A stretch of DNA of 8,008 nt from a virus. Its lineage: Duplodnaviria > Heunggongvirae > Uroviricota > Caudoviricetes. Location: IMG/VR virus record IMGVR_UViG_2695420427_000002, one strand, 5' to 3'. Positions 236-7,881 of the stretch are shown piece by piece. Within the stretch, counting starts at the first letter, position 1. The number at the start of each line of letters is the position of its first letter. The notes under the pieces were generated by a model that made no database searches, was not told where the DNA came from, and saw only the letters and a list, made by a program, of their open reading frames with translations. The position numbers and the translations under genes were made by a program.

Positions 236-674
236 CTACGGTCCTCCTCCCCGGAGGGGGGCATTTCATTATTTTTCTAATCGTTACTGGTGAGAAGGCG
301 GAAGAAAAAGCCAGTTCTTCGCCCCTAAATAACAGCATGATTCCAGTCCATGCAAAATCTGATTTCCAGCTCACACATACCGAGCACTGTACAAAAAACC
401 GCCAACCAAGGCAGTTAAGAGTGTGTTCCCGGGGTTTGCTTAGAATATTTTGTAAGTTGTCCGAAGAGATATTTACAACACCAGAATGATGCATTATCAG
501 TCCCCTGCCAGAGGTTCACTACGTAACCTGACCGACAATGCACCATTCTGGTGCTGAAAAAAGAGCACTGGAACTGCAACAAAACAACATCACAGAACAG
601 GAGATGGTAAGGAGTCAGACATTCCCACACAATATTGTGTCAGTGCAAATAACAACCTTCGTCTCAAATCTCGC

Positions 675-749
<75 letters not shown>

Positions 750-830: not shown

Positions 831-907
831 TGGCCCACCACCGAGGACTCGAACCTCGCACCGTCAACTTAGAAGGTTGATGCTCTATCCGGATGAGCTA
901 GTGGTGG
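831..907 (-). tRNA. tRNA-Arg (anticodon UCU, reads AGA/AGG), 77 nt with encoded CCA
   Basis: Reverse complement reads CCACCACTAGCTCATCCGGATAGAGCATCAACCTTCTAAGTTGACGGTGCGAGGTTCGAGTCCTCGGTGGTGGGCCA. Acceptor stem CCACCAC/GTGGTGG (C1-G72), anticodon stem TCAAC/GTTGA with loop CTTCTAA, T-stem CGAGG/CCTCG. 2-nt spacer to the Thr tRNA. Confidence 0.85.
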
Positions 908-908
908 T

Positions 909-985
909 TGGTGGCCCTTGCTGGACTTGAACCAGCGACCTGGCGATTATGAGTCGCTCGCTCTGACCAACTGAGCTAAAGGGCC
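909..985 (-). tRNA. tRNA with CAU anticodon, probably Ile2-type (AUA-reading, lysidine-modified) rather than elongator Met
   Basis: Reverse complement reads GGCCCTTTAGCTCAGTTGGTCAGAGCGAGCGACTCATAATCGCCAGGTCGCTGGTTCAAGTCCAGCAAGGGCCACCA. Acceptor stem GGCCCTT/AAGGGCC, anticodon loop CTCATAA. The anticodon and T arms resemble enterobacterial ileX-type tRNA as I recall it. 1-nt spacer to the Arg tRNA. Confidence 0.85.
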
Positions 986-1096: not shown

Positions 1097-1174
1097 TCTT
1101 TCAAATGTCCATGTCTGCTATTCGCCTCGCGGTACAGCTTTGCGAAGCGTACAAGAATTGAAGCAGTTTTTACG

Positions 1175-1729
1175 TCAAAAAGCAATAACTTTTTTCTCTA
1201 TACCAAAAGCCATAACCATTGGTTTGTACAAAATAAATTCTGCCACCTTTAGCCAATGCTCAATGCGTCTTTCACAGGTTCTTAAACTCCATTTCGGGTG
1301 TGCATCATTCAGCAGTTCAGCCATTTTGCGTTTGGTCATCCCCCGCCCCTCATACCGTTGCCGAAGGACGCTAATCAATCCTGGATGCTCTGCCAGCACC
1401 TCACTTATGACCCGATCAATACATAACGCCTCTGCATCAGTACAATGCGCCAGCCAGCTCTTTTGCTTACCGTTAATCATATCCCGCAAAAAAGCCTCAA
1501 GTTCAGACTTGTTCAGACCTGCTTTTTTCATCCTCCGGAGCGCCTCGTTAATTGCCGTTTTTGTCAGCTTTTTAGAGGTCAACATCAGGTTAAACATATT
1601 CCCCGTCTTACCGCCACCAATATACGACCAGCGCCCCCACATACGTAGTTTTCCCTGAATCCAGACACTTTCCAGCGTGGTGAGACGAAGGTGTTCTCCG
1701 CTTTTTCCTGTATTCGTTGGGTAAATCAT
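1175..1729 (-). CDS. 184-aa protein at the Q position; putative late-gene regulator/antiterminator by synteny only
   Basis: Start ATG at 1729-1727 is preceded by GAAAGGAGGG 7 nt upstream and overlaps the upstream stop (ATGA at 1726-1729), so the longer 224-aa track ORF is not the real start. It is the last gene before the terminator and tRNA array. No Zn-finger motif recognised, so Q identity is an inference. Confidence 0.6.
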   Translation of the reverse strand: MIYPTNTGKSGEHLRLTTLESVWIQGKLRMWGRWSYIGGGKTGNMFNLMLTSKKLTKTAINEALRRMKKAGLNKSELEAFLRDMINGKQKSWLAHCTDAEALCIDRVISEVLAEHPGLISVLRQRYEGRGMTKRKMAELLNDAHPKWSLRTCERRIEHWLKVAEFILYKPMVMAFGIEKKVIAF

Positions 1730-2016
1730 AAATATCCCTCCTTTCTCCAGATTTCTTGTGTGCGAAAAACACCTTCTGCATGCATCAGGCGTAATTCTTC
1801 TTTGGTGTAATCGCTGGTTTTTACCCGCCCGTCGATTAAATCGTGGCACGAGCTACAGGCAATCGCTGCCTGCATATCGTGTGGCTTTATCGCTGTTCCG
1901 CACGTTCCCGCCAGTCGGTAATGCGCCAGCACAGACGTTTCCGGATCGTGATTGCAGTAGCCAGGAATTCTGACGGTGCACATCTGCCCCCGCGCCGCTT
2001 TACGTAAATCCACCAT
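1726..2016 (-). CDS. 96-aa Cys-rich YbcO-like (DUF1364-type) nin-region protein
   Basis: Four Cys in a C-x7-C ... C-x2-C-H arrangement (CTVRIPGYC ... CSSCH), and the same 96-aa length as E. coli DLP12 YbcO as I recall it. TAATG overlap with the upstream gene at 2014-2018. Confidence 0.6.
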   Translation of the reverse strand: MVDLRKAARGQMCTVRIPGYCNHDPETSVLAHYRLAGTCGTAIKPHDMQAAIACSSCHDLIDGRVKTSDYTKEELRLMHAEGVFRTQEIWRKEGYL

Positions 2017-2615
2017 TACGCAAACTCCAGCAGCTGCGCGGCCACATTTTCGACTTGTTCCGGAGAGGAAAATTTACGGAACAGAATCCAGTTCCACAGC
2101 ACATTCAGAACAGATTTATAAACCTGCTGAAACTCGGTTTCGTCCATATTCGCAAAAGCGATGGATTTTGCCCGACGCCCGCGGCTACCGTCCGGATAAA
2201 AATGTTCGGTGTAAAATCCAGCCTGAATGGTTACCCACTCGCGAAAAGCCTCAAACGACTTTAGCAATGCCGTATCCCGGGTTCTGCGTGTCGCAACTGT
2301 ATTCAGATATTGCTCTGCGGCTTCGCTCAGAGCTGGCGTATGTTCCCGACCTACTGATTCGCACAGGTAATCAACGAAACCAGACAGCAGTTCTCGTTCG
2401 CGAGGCGTGATCGCCCCACCGACCGGAGTCCAGTAATCGAATCCCAGTTGCAGGAGTTTGAAAAAACGCTTGTGGAATGCGTAGTTACGCACACGCTTAA
2501 AGTCTGCGTGTATCCACTCACCTGTTTTGATTTGATGCAGAAAATCGCAACTCTCCGGCGTCGCCGGGAGAAGTAATCCGGAAGAGGTTTGTTTGATCAG
2601 TTGTATATGCGCCAT
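2016..2615 (-). CDS. 199-aa conserved prophage protein of unknown function (copy 1 allele)
   Basis: ATG at 2615-2613 with GGAG-type Shine-Dalgarno upstream (cggagaactacgATG). Translationally coupled to the YbcO-like gene. Present in all three cassette copies. Confidence 0.65.
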   Translation of the reverse strand: MAHIQLIKQTSSGLLLPATPESCDFLHQIKTGEWIHADFKRVRNYAFHKRFFKLLQLGFDYWTPVGGAITPRERELLSGFVDYLCESVGREHTPALSEAAEQYLNTVATRRTRDTALLKSFEAFREWVTIQAGFYTEHFYPDGSRGRRAKSIAFANMDETEFQQVYKSVLNVLWNWILFRKFSSPEQVENVAAQLLEFA

Positions 2616-2662
2616 CGTAGTTCTCCGCTGGCGCAGTAGAATGGGTGTTCAGCCCGTTATGT

Positions 2663-2691
2663 AGTATACCAGAATTAATGCCAATACTAAC
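2663..2691 (-). promoter_or_regulatory. Candidate extended -10 promoter (TGgTATACT) in the unique junction upstream of cassette copy 1
   Basis: Minus-strand TGGTATACT (plus 2663-2671) with a weak -35 (gttagt). Lies within the unique 2616-2782 segment immediately upstream of the copy-1 199-aa gene. Confidence 0.25.
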
Positions 2692-2797
2692 AGGATGCTC
2701 TGACTCGCAATTCATCCAGCAGTTTATCATTTCCCATAATGTCACTTACCCTCATCGGTAAAAAAATTGCCTTTCGACCATAGAAGCAGTTTTTACG

Positions 2798-3352
2798 TCA
2801 AAAAGCAATAACTTTTTTCTCTATACCAAAAGCCATAACCATTGGTTTGTACAAAATAAATTCTGCCACCTTTAGCCAATGCTCAATGCGTCTTTCACAG
2901 GTTCTTAAACTCCATTTCGGGTGTGCATCATTCAGCAGTTCAGCCATTTTGCGTTTGGTCATCCCCCGCCCCTCATACCGTTGCCGAAGGACGCTAATCA
3001 ATCCTGGATGCTCTGCCAGCACCTCACTTATGACCCGATCAATACATAACGCCTCTGCATCAGTACAATGCGCCAGCCAGCTCTTTTGCTTACCGTTAAT
3101 CATATCCCGCAAAAAAGCCTCAAGTTCAGACTTGTTCAGACCTGCTTTTTTCATCCTCCGGAGCGCCTCGTTAATTGCCGTTTTTGTCAGCTTTTTAGAG
3201 GTCAACATCAGGTTAAACATATTCCCCGTCTTACCGCCACCAATATACGACCAGCGCCCCCACATACGTAGTTTTCCCTGAATCCAGACACTTTCCAGCG
3301 TGGTGAGACGAAGGTGTTCTCCGCTTTTTCCTGTATTCGTTGGGTAAATCAT
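2798..3352 (-). CDS. 184-aa Q-position protein, copy 2 (identical protein to copy 1)
   Basis: Identical translation to 1175-1729, same Shine-Dalgarno and ATGA coupling. Here it is followed after 15 bp by the unique junction, not by the terminator and tRNAs. Confidence 0.6.
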   Translation of the reverse strand: MIYPTNTGKSGEHLRLTTLESVWIQGKLRMWGRWSYIGGGKTGNMFNLMLTSKKLTKTAINEALRRMKKAGLNKSELEAFLRDMINGKQKSWLAHCTDAEALCIDRVISEVLAEHPGLISVLRQRYEGRGMTKRKMAELLNDAHPKWSLRTCERRIEHWLKVAEFILYKPMVMAFGIEKKVIAF

Positions 3353-3639
3353 AAATATCCCTCCTTTCTCCAGATTTCTTGTGTGCGAAAAACACCTTCT
3401 GCATGCATCAGGCGTAATTCTTCTTTGGTGTAATCGCTGGTTTTTACCCGCCCGTCGATTAAATCGTGGCACGAGCTACAGGCAATCGCTGCCTGCATAT
3501 CGTGTGGCTTTATCGCTGTTCCGCACGTTCCCGCCAGTCGGTAATGCGCCAGCACAGACGTTTCCGGATCGTGATTGCAGTAGCCAGGAATTCTGACGGT
3601 GCACATCTGCCCCCGCGCCGCTTTACGTAAATCCACCAT
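3349..3639 (-). CDS. YbcO-like 96-aa protein, copy 2
   Basis: Identical translation to 1726-2016. Confidence 0.6.
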   Translation of the reverse strand: MVDLRKAARGQMCTVRIPGYCNHDPETSVLAHYRLAGTCGTAIKPHDMQAAIACSSCHDLIDGRVKTSDYTKEELRLMHAEGVFRTQEIWRKEGYL

Positions 3640-4238
3640 TACGCAAACTCCAGCAGCTGCGCGGCCACATTTTCGACTTGTTCCGGAGAGGAAAATTTAC
3701 GGAACAGAATCCAGTTCCACAGCACATTCAGAACAGATTTATAAACCTGCTGAAACTCGGTTTCGTCCATATTCGCAAACGCGATAGATTTCGCCCGACA
3801 CCCACGGCTACCGTCCGGATAAAAATGCTCGGTGTAAAATCCGGCCTGAATGGCTACCCACTCGCGGAAAGCCTCAAACGACTTTAGCAATGCCGTATCA
3901 CTGGTTCTGCGTGTCGCAACTGTATTCAGATATTGCTCTGCGGCTTCGCTCAGAGCTGGCGTATGTTCCCGGCCTACTGATTCACACAGGTAATCAACGA
4001 AACCGGACACCAGTTTTCGTTCGCGAGGCGTGATCGCCCCACCGACCGGAGTCCAGTAATCGAAACCCAGTTGCAGGAGTTTGAAAAAACGCTTGTGGAA
4101 TGCGTAGTTACACACACGCTTAAAGTCTGCGTGTATCCACTCACCTATTTTGATTTGATGCAGAAAATCGCAACTCTCCGGCGTCGCCGGGAGAAGTAAT
4201 CCGGAAGAGGTTTGTTTGACCAGTTGTATATGTGCCAT
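3639..4238 (-). CDS. 199-aa conserved prophage protein, copy 2 (divergent allele, 7 aa differences)
   Basis: ATG at 4238-4236 with Shine-Dalgarno (ccggagaaagccgATG). The 213-aa track ORF begins at a TTG at 4280 and is probably not the true start. Differs from copies 1 and 3 at T/I, R/C, EL/KV, R/S, T/A and R/C. Confidence 0.65.
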   Translation of the reverse strand: MAHIQLVKQTSSGLLLPATPESCDFLHQIKIGEWIHADFKRVCNYAFHKRFFKLLQLGFDYWTPVGGAITPRERKLVSGFVDYLCESVGREHTPALSEAAEQYLNTVATRRTSDTALLKSFEAFREWVAIQAGFYTEHFYPDGSRGCRAKSIAFANMDETEFQQVYKSVLNVLWNWILFRKFSSPEQVENVAAQLLEFA

Positions 4239-4276
4239 CGGCTTTCTCCGGTGGCACGGTGTTACACAGCAGGAGT

Positions 4277-4564
4277 TCAATCCTGCTCAAGATTGTAGAT
4301 GAGTTTATTCTTCAGCAAAAGCAGAAAACCAGCCTTAAAACCAATCTCTTTCAAAACCCGTAATGATGTGACAAATTCGTCCTCACGCAAAATAAAACCG
4401 TCCGTCAGAAGTCCATTACAAAAATAAAATAACACAGCACCGCTCTTCCTTTGTTGAGATTGCAAACATCTAATGCGGCAATGGCTGACAATCGCTCCAT
4501 TCTCAACGCGCACAGCATAGAGGCCATTTTCACTAAAAATTTCACGCAATTCTTCGATTTTCAT
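4277..4564 (-). CDS. 95-aa hypothetical protein, first gene of the operon (at the position rem occupies in E. coli Qin)
   Basis: ATG at 4564-4562 with GGAAGG about 10 nt upstream and a candidate promoter about 80 bp upstream. Identical second copy at 6275-6562. Function unknown. Confidence 0.5.
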   Translation of the reverse strand: MKIEELREIFSENGLYAVRVENGAIVSHCRIRCLQSQQRKSGAVLFYFCNGLLTDGFILREDEFVTSLRVLKEIGFKAGFLLLLKNKLIYNLEQD

Positions 4565-4645
4565 CTTCAGAATCCTTCCAGATAAATAGCTCTCCCCTGT
4601 TCGGGGTCCATCCCTCTTCTCCCTGCGCGCTACTTAAGTGAGTCG

Positions 4646-4673
4646 ATTCTATCTGCGAAGGTGCGCGAATCAA
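4646..4673 (-). promoter_or_regulatory. Candidate sigma70 promoter for the 95-aa / 199-aa / YbcO-like / Q-position operon (TTGATT-16-TAGAAT)
   Basis: Minus-strand -35 TTGATT (plus 4668-4673), 16-bp spacer, -10 TAGAAT (plus 4646-4651), about 80 bp upstream of the 95-aa gene start. Confidence 0.4.
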
Positions 4674-4693
4674 ATTCACCGGAAATAAACAAC

Positions 4694-4736
4694 AAAAAAC
4701 CCGCCGAAACGCTGAGAGATCACAGCGATGGGCGGG
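4694..4736 (-). terminator. Rho-independent terminator downstream of hok
   Basis: Nested hairpin: outer arms cccgcc (4700-4705) / ggcggg (4731-4736), inner stem cgctg/cagcg. On the minus strand it is followed by six U (plus-strand aaaaaa 4694-4699). A 9-bp GC stem gggcgggga/tccccgccc at 4778-4805 lies in the hok 3' UTR. Confidence 0.55.
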
Positions 4737-4813
4737 TTAAGTGCGGGTGCGTTGAGGATGCCTGACACATCAGAGGTGGGCGGGGATGGGATCAGCTCCC
4801 CGCCCGGTCACTC

Positions 4814-4969
4814 TTACTTCCTGGATTCGTAGTCTACGAAGACAGCGACCTCCGTCTGGCCGGTTCGGATTCGTACCTCACAGAGGTCTTTCCTCGTTAC
4901 CAGTGCCGTCACTATGACGGTTAAACAGATGACGATCAGGGCGATTAACATCGCCTTTTGCTGCTTCAT
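4814..4969 (-). CDS. hok: Hok/Gef-family type I toxin (51 aa), copy lacking its own promoter
   Basis: MKQQKAMLIALIVICLTVIVTALVTRKDLCEVRIRTGQTEVAVFVDYESRK: single transmembrane helix followed by the Hok-family LTRK-LCE-R-R-G-EVA-F motif, close to HokD/RelF as I recall it. Shine-Dalgarno AAGGAG upstream of the ATG at 4969. The track ORF is an in-frame upstream extension to 5026. Confidence 0.85.
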   Translation of the reverse strand: MKQQKAMLIALIVICLTVIVTALVTRKDLCEVRIRTGQTEVAVFVDYESRK

Positions 4970-5047
4970 AGCCTGCTTCTCCTTGCCTTTCGGCATGTAA
5001 GAGGCTAACCTACATGTGCAAAGCATGAAATTGGCCTCAGATTAATG

Positions 5048-5350
5048 TTAAGCGTCTTGCCGGACGCGTAATGTTAACTGGGGCTTTTCTCTATCTGCCT
5101 TTTGGTGTTCATGCCTGAAAAGTTCAGACTTGTTCAGACCTGCTTTTTTCATCCTCCGGAGCGCCTCGTTAATTGCCGTTTTTGTCAGCTTTTTAGAGGT
5201 CAACATCAGGTTAAACATATTCCCCGTCTTACCGCCACCAATATACGACCAGCGCCCCCACATACGTAGTTTTCCCTGAATCCAGACACTTTCCAGCGTG
5301 GTGAGACGAAGGTGTTCTCCGCTTTTTCCTGTATTCGTTGGGTAAATCAT
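5048..5350 (-). pseudogene. Truncated Q-position gene: first 76 codons fused at the repeat junction to the hok leader, giving a 24-aa unrelated tail
   Basis: Identical to the 5' part of 1175-1729 down to about 5120. The translation then diverges (ELFRHEHQKADREKPQLTLRVRQDA) because the sequence beyond 5119 is the end of the neighbouring repeat unit. Confidence 0.75.
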
Positions 5351-5637
5351 AAATATCCCTCCTTTCTCCAGATTTCTTGTGTGCGAAAAACACCTTCTGC
5401 ATGCATCAGGCGTAATTCTTCTTTGGTGTAATCGCTGGTTTTTACCCGCCCGTCGATTAAATCGTGGCACGAGCTACAGGCAATCGCTGCCTGCATATCG
5501 TGTGGCTTTATCGCTGTTCCGCACGTTCCCGCCAGTCGGTAATGCGCCAGCACAGACGTTTCCGGATCGTGATTGCAGTAGCCAGGAATTCTGACGGTGC
5601 ACATCTGCCCCCGCGCCGCTTTACGTAAATCCACCAT
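5347..5637 (-). CDS. YbcO-like 96-aa protein, copy 3
   Basis: Identical translation to 1726-2016. Confidence 0.6.
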   Translation of the reverse strand: MVDLRKAARGQMCTVRIPGYCNHDPETSVLAHYRLAGTCGTAIKPHDMQAAIACSSCHDLIDGRVKTSDYTKEELRLMHAEGVFRTQEIWRKEGYL

Positions 5638-6236
5638 TACGCAAACTCCAGCAGCTGCGCGGCCACATTTTCGACTTGTTCCGGAGAGGAAAATTTACGG
5701 AACAGAATCCAGTTCCACAGCACATTCAGAACAGATTTATAAACCTGCTGAAACTCGGTTTCGTCCATATTCGCAAAAGCGATGGATTTTGCCCGACGCC
5801 CGCGGCTACCGTCCGGATAAAAATGTTCGGTGTAAAATCCAGCCTGAATGGTTACCCACTCGCGAAAAGCCTCAAACGACTTTAGCAATGCCGTATCCCG
5901 GGTTCTGCGTGTCGCAACTGTATTCAGATATTGCTCTGCGGCTTCGCTCAGAGCTGGCGTATGTTCCCGACCTACTGATTCGCACAGGTAATCAACGAAA
6001 CCAGACAGCAGTTCTCGTTCGCGAGGCGTGATCGCCCCACCGACCGGAGTCCAGTAATCGAATCCCAGTTGCAGGAGTTTGAAAAAACGCTTGTGGAATG
6101 CGTAGTTACGCACACGCTTAAAGTCTGCGTGTATCCACTCACCTGTTTTGATTTGATGCAGAAAATCGCAACTCTCCGGCGTCGCCGGGAGAAGTAATCC
6201 GGAAGAGGTTTGTTTGACCAGTTGTATATGTGCCAT
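5637..6236 (-). CDS. 199-aa conserved prophage protein, copy 3 (recombinant allele)
   Basis: The 5' end matches copy 2 (V at residue 7, same upstream sequence) while the body matches copy 1 at all the variable sites. Confidence 0.65.
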   Translation of the reverse strand: MAHIQLVKQTSSGLLLPATPESCDFLHQIKTGEWIHADFKRVRNYAFHKRFFKLLQLGFDYWTPVGGAITPRERELLSGFVDYLCESVGREHTPALSEAAEQYLNTVATRRTRDTALLKSFEAFREWVTIQAGFYTEHFYPDGSRGRRAKSIAFANMDETEFQQVYKSVLNVLWNWILFRKFSSPEQVENVAAQLLEFA

Positions 6237-6274
6237 CGGCTTTCTCCGGTGGCACGGTGTTACACAGCAGGAGT

Positions 6275-6562
6275 TCAATCCTGCTCAAGATTGTAGATGA
6301 GTTTATTCTTCAGCAAAAGCAGAAAACCAGCCTTAAAACCAATCTCTTTCAAAACCCGTAATGATGTGACAAATTCGTCCTCACGCAAAATAAAACCGTC
6401 CGTCAGAAGTCCATTACAAAAATAAAATAACACAGCACCGCTCTTCCTTTGTTGAGATTGCAAACATCTAATGCGGCAATGGCTGACAATCGCTCCATTC
6501 TCAACGCGCACAGCATAGAGGCCATTTTCACTAAAAATTTCACGCAATTCTTCGATTTTCAT
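6275..6562 (-). CDS. 95-aa hypothetical protein, second copy
   Basis: Identical to 4277-4564, with the same Shine-Dalgarno and upstream promoter candidate. Confidence 0.5.
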   Translation of the reverse strand: MKIEELREIFSENGLYAVRVENGAIVSHCRIRCLQSQQRKSGAVLFYFCNGLLTDGFILREDEFVTSLRVLKEIGFKAGFLLLLKNKLIYNLEQD

Positions 6563-6643
6563 CTTCAGAATCCTTCCAGATAAATAGCTCTCCCCTGTTC
6601 GGGGTCCATCCCTCTTCTCCCTGCGCGCTACTTAAGTGAGTCG

Positions 6644-6671
6644 ATTCTATCTGCGAAGGTGCGCGAATCAA
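6644..6671 (-). promoter_or_regulatory. Candidate operon promoter, second copy (TTGATT-16-TAGAAT)
   Basis: Same sequence as 4646-4673 at the 1998-bp offset. Confidence 0.4.
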
Positions 6672-6691
6672 ATTCACCGGAAATAAACAAC

Positions 6692-6734
6692 AAAAAACCC
6701 GCCGAAACGCTGAGAGATCACAGCGATGGGCGGG
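6692..6734 (-). terminator. Terminator downstream of hok, second copy
   Basis: Same sequence as 4694-4736 at the 1998-bp offset. Confidence 0.55.
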
Positions 6735-6811
6735 TTAAGTGCGGGTGCGTTGAGGATGCCTGACACATCAGAGGTGGGCGGGGATGGGATCAGCTCCCCG
6801 CCCGGTCACTC

Positions 6812-6967
6812 TTACTTCCTGGATTCGTAGTCTACGAAGACAGCGACCTCCGTCTGGCCGGTTCGGATTCGTACCTCACAGAGGTCTTTCCTCGTTACCA
6901 GTGCCGTCACTATGACGGTTAAACAGATGACGATCAGGGCGATTAACATCGCCTTTTGCTGCTTCAT
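6812..6967 (-). CDS. hok: Hok/Gef-family type I toxin (51 aa), copy with its native upstream region
   Basis: Identical to 4814-4969. Its leader extends into unique sequence at 7118-7194 that contains a promoter candidate. Confidence 0.85.
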   Translation of the reverse strand: MKQQKAMLIALIVICLTVIVTALVTRKDLCEVRIRTGQTEVAVFVDYESRK

Positions 6968-7143
6968 AGCCTGCTTCTCCTTGCCTTTCGGCATGTAAGA
7001 GGCTAACCTACATGTGCAAAGCATGAAATTGGCCTCAGATTAATGTTAAGCGTCTTGCCGGACGCGTAATGTTAACTGGGGCTTTTCTCTATCTGCCTTT
7101 TGGTGTTCATGCCTGAAGCAGATAGCCTCAAGCACCCGCAGTC

Positions 7144-7173
7144 ATTCTACTTACCTCGCCAATATGAAATCAA
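7144..7173 (-). promoter_or_regulatory. Candidate hok mRNA promoter (TTGATT-18-TAGAAT)
   Basis: Minus-strand -35 TTGATT (plus 7168-7173), 18-bp spacer, -10 TAGAAT (plus 7144-7149). Predicted start about 170 nt upstream of the hok ATG, consistent with the long leaders of hok-family mRNAs. Lies outside the repeat, so only this hok copy has it. Confidence 0.35.
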
Positions 7174-7194
7174 TCAGAAAGGTGCCCCATAAAA

Positions 7195-7881
7195 TCACTC
7201 CTTCTCTTCTTTACCGTAGTGGAGTTGACCAATTTTGATAAGAGGGCGTCCCTGAGATTTGCGGTGTAGATTGGTATCGCGCAGAGAATACACACAGCCA
7301 CAATATTCCTGCTGATAGAATTTTTCGCGCTTGCTGATTTCAATCATACGGGACGAGCCGCCCTGCTTGCGCCAGTTATAATCCCAGTACACCATGCCCG
7401 GATAATGCGCGACGGCTCGCCGCCCACAGTCGTTAACCTGCTGCATATTTTTCCAGCGTGAAATGCCCAGTGAACTGCTGATCACACTGAAACCATTTTC
7501 AGCGGCGTACAGCGCTGTCCGCTCAAAACGCATGTCAAAACACATGGTGCAACGGATCCCTCGTTCGGGCTCCCATTCCATTCCTTTGGCTCGTTCAAAC
7601 CAGTTGTCTGTGTCGTAATCAGCATCAATAAACGGCACGCCGTGTTGTTCAGCAAAGCGAATATTCTCATCCTTACGAATTAAATACTCTTTCTGAGGAT
7701 GAATGTTCGGGTTGTAGAAAAAGATGGTGTAGTCGATTCCCGAGGCCTGAAGCGCCTCCATCACCTCACCGGAACATGGAGCACAGCAAGAGTGCAGTAG
7801 TAGTTTGTTTGCCCCGTTTGGGAGCTCCAATTTGGGCCGTTTGAAATCAGCAACTGTCATAAATATGTTTATTGGGGTCAT
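7195..7881 (-). CDS. queH: QueH-like epoxyqueuosine reductase (DUF208 family), 228 aa
   Basis: Long clean ORF with the Cys-rich HSCCAPCS motif near the N-terminus and a C-terminal CGC motif, which I recognise as the DUF208/QueH signature. No obvious Shine-Dalgarno at either candidate start (7881 or 7860). Confidence 0.6.

Follow-up and report, generated by a model that had tools for sequence, protein, structure and literature searches.

A hok/mok/sok cassette of the hokW-sokW lineage, almost certainly complete, in the nin/Q region of a lambdoid prophage

[quoted passage not shown] In R1, target recognition is started by the Sok tail, as known from the literature of the Gerdes laboratory. Hok toxicity, closed and open conformers of the hok mRNA, its 3′ processing to an active truncated form and RNase III cleavage of the Sok-hok duplex have been described for this locus (PMC9841398), and the definitions of ucb and of the other hok mRNA elements used here were taken from the same paper. 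A prophage-borne relative, hokW-sokW, is carried by the Stx-converting phages 933W and Sp5/VT2-Sakai. The sokW RNA was detected by northern blot, and HokW is toxic (Takada et al. 2021, PMC8621323). Protection was lost in a sokW −10 mutant, in which primer YO-421 replaces the complement of TAACCT; it was restored by sokW supplied in trans, with a partial dependence on RNase III and Hfq (PMC8621323). The pair was active in its prophage context, and in Sp5 RecA-dependent induction led to the disappearance of Sok, while HokW speeded growth arrest and phage release (PMC8621323). Prophages in general are enriched in hok genes, and many chromosomal hok loci are reported to be inactive for post-segregational killing (bioRxiv 10.1101/2025.08.07.668861).

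We analysed a stretch of 8,008 nt from an IMG/VR virus record of the class Caudoviricetes (IMGVR_UViG_2695420427_000002), here called the window. Its positions 6692-7173 are almost certainly a complete type I toxin-antitoxin cassette of canonical hok/mok/sok layout, belonging to the prophage-borne hokW-sokW lineage. The locus is of an ordinary, already known kind and lies in a typical place, flanked by queH and orf95-DUF1367 within the nin/Q region of a lambdoid prophage. The order of its elements is the same as in R1: promoter, tac, ucb, Sok target, mok SD, sok −10/−35, hok, GC hairpin, fbi and terminator. The features of the cassette and the adjacent queH gene are as follows.

7144-7173, minus strand: promoter-like site of the hok/mok mRNA, found by consensus scan (−35 TTGATT at 7173-7168, 18-nt spacer, −10 TAGAAT at 7149-7144)
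6692-7137, minus strand: predicted full-length hok/mok mRNA, ~446 nt, with its 3′ end after the T run of the terminator
7126-7137, minus strand: tac (translational activator element) at the mRNA 5′ end, paired with fbi in the full-length fold and with ucb in the Rfam consensus structure
7078-7086, minus strand: ucb or anti-SD, AAAAGCCCC, placed by fold helices and the Rfam structure line
6812-7024, minus strand: mok ORF of 70 codons, sharing its frame with hok; SD GAGG at 7036-7033
6812-6967, minus strand: hok toxin gene, 51 aa, ATG at 6967, SD AAGGAG at 6982-6977
6776-6803, minus strand: 9-bp GC hairpin of the 3′ UTR, 6803-6795 paired with 6784-6776 in the folds
6743-6755, minus strand: fbi (fold-back inhibitory element), CCUCAACGCACCC, paired with tac in the minimum free energy (MFE) structure and conserved in relatives
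6692-6736, minus strand: intrinsic terminator of the hok mRNA, placed by folds (stem 6736-6729/6703-6696, T run to 6692)
7016-7086, plus strand: Sok antisense RNA gene, 71 nt, coordinates carried over by alignment from the annotated sokW of 933W
6981-7009, plus strand: sok promoter (−35 TTGCCT at 6981-6986, 17-nt spacer, −10 TAACCT at 7004-7009; transcription start site at 7016)
7195-7881: queH gene (Pfam QueH, E 2e-65)

The initial annotation of the window had recognised a Hok-type toxin and had named a protein-family search as one test that could refute it. In this search the ORF fell inside the Hok/Gef family. The 51-aa product, read from an ATG internal to the mok frame (MKQQKAMLIALIVICLTVIVTALVTRKDLCEVRIRTGQTEVAVFVDYESRK), matched Pfam PF01848 HOK_GEF with an E value of 9.8e-23 and 79.9 bits (cut-off 22). 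It is 98% identical to HokW, 90% to K-12 HokD, 78% to HokC, 43% to R1 Hok and 37% to HokB. PHROG 251, 'MokW-like host killing', matched the mok/hok product with an E value of 3e-32. The NCBIfam Hok subfamily HMM reached 55 bits, under its curated cut-off of 73; the NCBIfam Hok HMMs were left out of the membership evidence because their scores were under the curated cut-offs. The in-frame extension of 19 codons upstream of hok, for which a Mok-like role had been suggested, is Mok: the mokW (213 nt) and hokW (156 nt) genes of 933W are nested identically. The mok ATG is retained in almost all of 52 relatives.

The Tyr47 codon of hok is UAC followed by G and lies inside the heptamer CUACGAA (6824-6830, minus strand; A at 6828), a tRNA-Arg-like motif of the kind edited by TadA. 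A-to-I editing of the hokC, hokD and hokE mRNAs at the equivalent Tyr-to-Cys site has been described in a preprint (bioRxiv 10.1101/2025.08.07.668861).

At the DNA level, the locus is 92% identical over ~420 nt to hokW-mokW-sokW of 933W and VT2-Sakai/Sp5. Hok differs from HokW by one residue (R50 versus E50), mok and hok are nested alike, tac, ucb and fbi are shared, and no base differs in the Sok hairpin or in either hexamer of the sok promoter. Differences are found in four places. The Sok 5′ tail differs from that of SokW at 7 of 16 positions, which leaves the pairing with its own mRNA unaffected, since Sok is cis-encoded. The hok −35 region is unlike that of 933W. An intrinsic terminator directly follows fbi in the window, and 933W diverges there. 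Finally, the window locus lies beside queH in the nin/Q region, whereas that of 933W lies near the right end of the genome.

The initial annotation had held that the antitoxin RNA was either divergent or lacking, and had proposed a covariance search of the locus. This search was strongly positive. The Rfam model RF01794 'sok' matched 6962-7137 on the minus strand over its full length (model positions 1-157), with 117 bits and an E value of 6.9e-27, against a gathering score of 59 bits. RF01794 also matches the R1 locus. The hok-family layout that had been proposed for the mRNA is supported.

To learn which strand RF01794 matches mark and what they mean, we examined four control loci and one negative control. 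In 933W, the match covered 823-997 (−) of the sequence record L001, and the annotated sokW, 877-947 (+), lies inside it. In E. coli K-12, hokC was matched at 602-754 (−) with 118 bits, with the annotated sokC at 653-711 (+), and hokB at 1067-1218 (−) with 110 bits, with the annotated sokB at 1120-1176 (+). In the R1-type plasmid locus the match was again on the hok strand; the record annotates no RNA, and the position that we take to be Sok was read from the sequence in the light of the R1 literature. No RF01794 match was found in K-12 hokD, the Sok-less negative control. Since the matches fell on the hok strand in all four controls, RF01794 represents the hok-sense leader with the Sok target, and a full-length match is accompanied by a Sok gene on the opposite strand. 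The model is named 'sok antitoxin', yet it is a 157-nt hok-sense model reaching from tac to the hok AUG, and its matches report the strand opposite to the real Sok, at ~2.5 times the length of Sok.

The window locus (117 bits) scored like the K-12 loci hokC(gef)/mokC/sokC and hokB/mokB/sokB (118 and 110 bits). In these, sokC and sokB are annotated on the opposite strand within the RF01794 match and mokC is in frame with hokC, as in the window. Their Sok hairpins are shorter than that of the window, and they lie on the chromosomal backbone, whereas the window locus lies in a prophage.

The coordinates of Sok were obtained by pairwise alignment of the window with 933W, in which sokW is annotated at 877-947 of L001. 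Together with the RF01794 match, this homology maps a Sok gene to 7016-7086 on the plus strand and overturns the earlier reading that Sok was absent or divergent; as judged from sequence likeness, the locus carries a Sok gene. This gene lies wholly within the RF01794 match. The predicted Sok fold has a single-stranded 5′ tail of 15 nt, a long hairpin (7031-7083) and a final UUUU, as is typical of Sok RNAs. At −28.6 kcal/mol (z = −4.7) it is more stable than the fold of any of 200 shuffled sequences. Sok shows complementarity to the region in which mok translation starts.

Both hexamers of the sok promoter are those of sokW, with a single substitution in the spacer, at 6994. The R1-type promoter, TTGCGC-17-TATCCT, is arranged like TTGCCT-17-TAACCT of the window but differs in sequence, and both overlap the hok SD. 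Compared with the consensus, the window promoter matches at four of six positions in the −35 and three of six in the −10, and six bases separate the −10 from the transcription start site. The 52 relatives do not vary in the −35 and hardly vary in the −10. This weak sigma-70 promoter shares sequence with the hok SD and with the first codons of mok, and its conservation could in part reflect the overlapping hok SD and mok/dcb constraints, not promoter function.

In a generic consensus scan of 6600-7300 the hok promoter was detected, but neither a sok promoter nor any terminator. It repeated the negative result of the initial annotation, which had found no convincing plus-strand promoter or terminator in the leader; homology, by contrast, places both a promoter and a terminator hairpin at 6981-7086 (+). 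The scan and the first reading missed the sok promoter because its hexamers match the consensus weakly, TTGCCT and TAACCT being below the scan thresholds. The hok terminator was missed by the pattern scan because an insertion of 23 nt makes its loop too long for the scan rule. For these two reasons the scan was rejected as evidence that Sok is absent.

The 5′ end of the hok mRNA, GGGUGCUUGAGG at 7137, was taken from position 1 of the Rfam model; R1 has GGCGCUUGAGG as tac at +1. From this predicted end to the hok ATG at 6967 there are 170 nt, in agreement with the leader of about 170 nt estimated earlier, and the leader is intact from tac through the hok ATG. The promoter-like site upstream sits just past the QueH stop codon, and its −10 and the bases near the transcription start are conserved with 933W in the alignment.

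The MFE fold of 7137-6690 has −191.2 kcal/mol (z = −7.96 against shuffles); this z value and the E value of the RF01794 match are both far from what chance would give. In this predicted structure, tac (7137-7126) pairs with fbi (6755-6743) over 12 bp interrupted by a bulge of one base. The mok SD region (7038-7032) is predicted to pair with ucb (7082-7076), through 7082-7080/7034-7032 and 7078-7076/7038-7036, and the neighbourhood of the mok ATG is paired with 6768-6756. The Rfam consensus structure has an alternative stem between tac and ucb and an SD/dcb target hairpin. As models, the MFE fold and the Rfam consensus structure are the closed and the open conformer known from R1. Folds of the truncated mRNA gave a 5′ metastable hairpin and not the tac-ucb stem, and a single MFE fold cannot decide the conformer. 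In counts of covarying pairs across 52 unique IMG/VR relatives, which covered tac-fbi and the hairpins of the GC stem and of Sok, variation was too low to give support to individual helices, and indels had shifted the alignment of the GC hairpin.

The folds also recovered the two 3′ elements that had been noticed before. The GC stem of 9 bp (6803-6795/6784-6776) has the same position as in the R1 hok mRNA, and the terminator consists of the stem 6736-6729/6703-6696 followed by the T run. The terminator loop holds a 23-nt insertion (6707-6729), CCATCGCTGTGATCTCTCAGCGT, which folds into a small hairpin of its own. Most relatives have a plain terminator, ACCCGC-TTCG-GCGGGTTTTTT (GCGGG-T6 after TTCG); the insertion is common to a few IMG/VR loci, for example those labelled L007 and L009. 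Stem and T run are preserved despite the insertion.

By analogy with R1 hok/sok and hokW-sokW, the full-length hok mRNA would be translationally inert. Slow trimming from the 3′ end would remove fbi, upon which tac would pair with ucb and the mok SD would open; translation of Mok would then drive that of Hok. An abundant and unstable Sok would bind first by its 5′ tail, and RNase III would cut the duplex. Once Sok synthesis stops, by loss of the element or by prophage induction, Hok would be made and would damage the inner membrane. A role as in Sp5, with growth arrest and phage release hastened by Hok after induction, is likely on the same analogy; prophage maintenance would be the other classical reading.

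Matches to the locus were found by megablast in 4,713 of 5,426 complete E. coli genomes, at a median of two places per genome. DNA identity was 100% in two of them, E. coli FDAARGOS_943 and FDAARGOS_944. There, the gene is annotated as 'HokD' between QueH and a hypothetical protein, DUF1367, DUF1364 and DUF1133, in an IS-ridden lambdoid prophage. Diversity within the cassette was calculated from 52 unique IMG/VR relatives (from L007-L086), with the following pi values.

7016-7031, Sok 5′ tail and mok start: pi 0.366
Sok hairpin: pi 0.086
sok −10: pi about 0.07
hok coding sequence: pi 0.046
tac: pi 0.026, nearly invariant
sok −35: pi 0.000

Variation in the cassette is thus highest in the Sok 5′ tail, with 19 distinct tails and a median difference of 7 of 16 bases among the 52 relatives. 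Judged by this pattern, the hypervariable tail could reflect a diversification of antisense specificity, through selection for hok/sok cassettes that do not cross-react among co-resident prophages.

Further observations concern the surroundings of the cassette. An ORF of 95 aa lies just downstream of hok (6275-6562, and again at 4277-4564); its only match was PHROG 340, of unknown function, with none in Pfam or NCBIfam, and it is preceded by a promoter-like TTGATT-16-TAGAAT at 6671-6644. Four tRNA genes are clustered on the minus strand at 675-985: Gly-TCC, Thr-TGT, Arg-TCT and one with a CAT anticodon, which is Met according to ARAGORN and Ile according to RefSeq. The cluster follows the Q-like gene on its downstream side, an arrangement found in many lambdoid prophages.

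Self-BLAST showed that 1157-7117 of the window is a tandem array of prophage nin/Q-region modules. Positions 3122-5119 match 5120-7117, a tandem unit of 1,998 bp with 19 mismatches, all of them in 3780-4147, in one copy of the DUF1367 gene. In addition, 1157-2632 matches 2780-4255, and 1499-2632 matches 5120-6253. The array contains three DUF1133-YbcO-DUF1367 modules and two hok/sok copies. Two features belong to the second copy.

4692-5119, minus strand: second hok/sok copy, 0 mismatches to the first copy by self-BLAST and mismatch list
5048-5470, minus strand: chimeric ORF, the N-terminal 117 aa of a DUF1133/Q-like protein and the hok leader, fused in frame at 5120/5119

The second copy is without the hok promoter and the first 20 nt of the mRNA (tac). 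It retains sok (5018-5088, plus strand; promoter 4983-5011), mok (4814-5026), hok (4814-4969), fbi and the terminator. The covariance search that had also been proposed for 4690-5120 did find RF01794 here; owing to the broken 5′ helix, its 52.3 bits fall short of the gathering score. The hairpin of ucb and SD is kept in the predicted fold. At the 5120/5119 junction, codon 117 of the DUF1133/Q-like gene is joined to position 21 of the hok mRNA without microhomology, and the resulting ORF reads across ucb of the second copy and ends 9 nt short of the mok SD. An origin of the junction by recombination at CTTGAGGCT, a shared 9-mer near both breakpoints, was considered and rejected, as the 9-mer is not retained in the junction sequence.

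In R1, single substitutions in G4-T6 of tac abolish toxicity and lock the mRNA closed (PMC9841398). Since tac is missing from the second copy, this copy is, on the R1 analogy, probably toxin-silent while still encoding Sok, as a Sok donor. Its mok and hok could be coupled to upstream translation through the chimeric ORF. If the array is real, there is a slim chance that the second copy is a rewired cassette, which either gives additional Sok and is otherwise silent or makes a toxin whose translation depends on expression of the phage early operon and not on 3′ processing. Separately, and with a chance no better, the Sok tails may have been selected to keep co-resident cassettes from cross-reacting.

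The array could be either a real amplification or a misassembly. That the array, including the truncated hok copy at 4692-5119, is an assembly artefact is a serious possibility, which we hold to be a little less probable than its opposite. Neither array junction (5119/5120 and ~2779/2780) had a spanning megablast match in the 5,426 complete E. coli genomes, and the exact 28-mer across 5119/5120 had no hit among the GTDB species representatives, in IMG/VR or in the JGI metagenome contigs. The nearest genome, FDAARGOS_944, has a single collapsed copy of 4,386 bp, and the flank of the copy termed copy A is typical of a different prophage. These findings favour misassembly. On the other hand, the copies are distinguishable by 19 substitutions clustered in one DUF1367 gene, which a simple over-expansion of a repeat would not give, and the junction is a clean in-frame fusion.

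A second alternative concerns the activity of the cassette at 6692-7173. It may be structurally complete and yet functionally quiescent, carried along in a decaying prophage without killing, like the chromosomal hokA/B/C loci that Pedersen and Gerdes reportedly tested. The nearest genomes carry the locus in a degraded, IS-ridden prophage (IS1, IS2, IS600 and a split terminase gene), and the terminator loop has taken up 23 nt. Chromosomal hok loci reportedly do not mediate post-segregational killing (bioRxiv 10.1101/2025.08.07.668861). We consider quiescence unlikely, given that all regulatory elements and both ORFs are intact, that the terminator keeps its stem and T run despite the insertion, that Hok is one residue from the toxic HokW, and that hokW-sokW is active in its own prophage context (PMC8621323).

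That the locus lost Sok or never had it, like K-12 hokD (relF), is very improbable: the generic scan was empty on the plus strand of the leader and the identical protein is called 'HokD' in RefSeq, after a K-12 family member that is Sok-less, but the window has a full-length RF01794 match where K-12 hokD has none, an intact leader from tac to the hok ATG, and a Sok hairpin and promoter hexamers identical to those of the experimentally validated sokW. K-12 hokD shares with the window 90% Hok identity and a location in a lambdoid prophage, there the Qin prophage. It lies directly after relBE and is without leader, mok and sok, whereas the window locus has all three, so that the hokD/relF-type class was rejected for it. 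R1 Hok is only 43% identical to that of the window, and the Sok hairpin of the window is longer than that of R1; the plasmid-borne or prophage-borne setting also separates these two loci. The preferred reading remains a complete hok/mok/sok cassette of the hokW-sokW lineage.

As one more copy of a cassette present in most E. coli genomes (4,713/5,426), with a 92%-identical relative already dissected experimentally, the locus by itself has little biological weight. It bears more on how such loci are read. The 'HokD' label given by annotation pipelines misleads, as it implies the Sok-less K-12 architecture: the name of the protein transfers, the architecture does not. RF01794 matches mark the hok leader containing the Sok target, not the strand or the extent of Sok. 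Sok promoters are too weak for consensus reading, and a homology or covariance search is needed before Sok is called absent.
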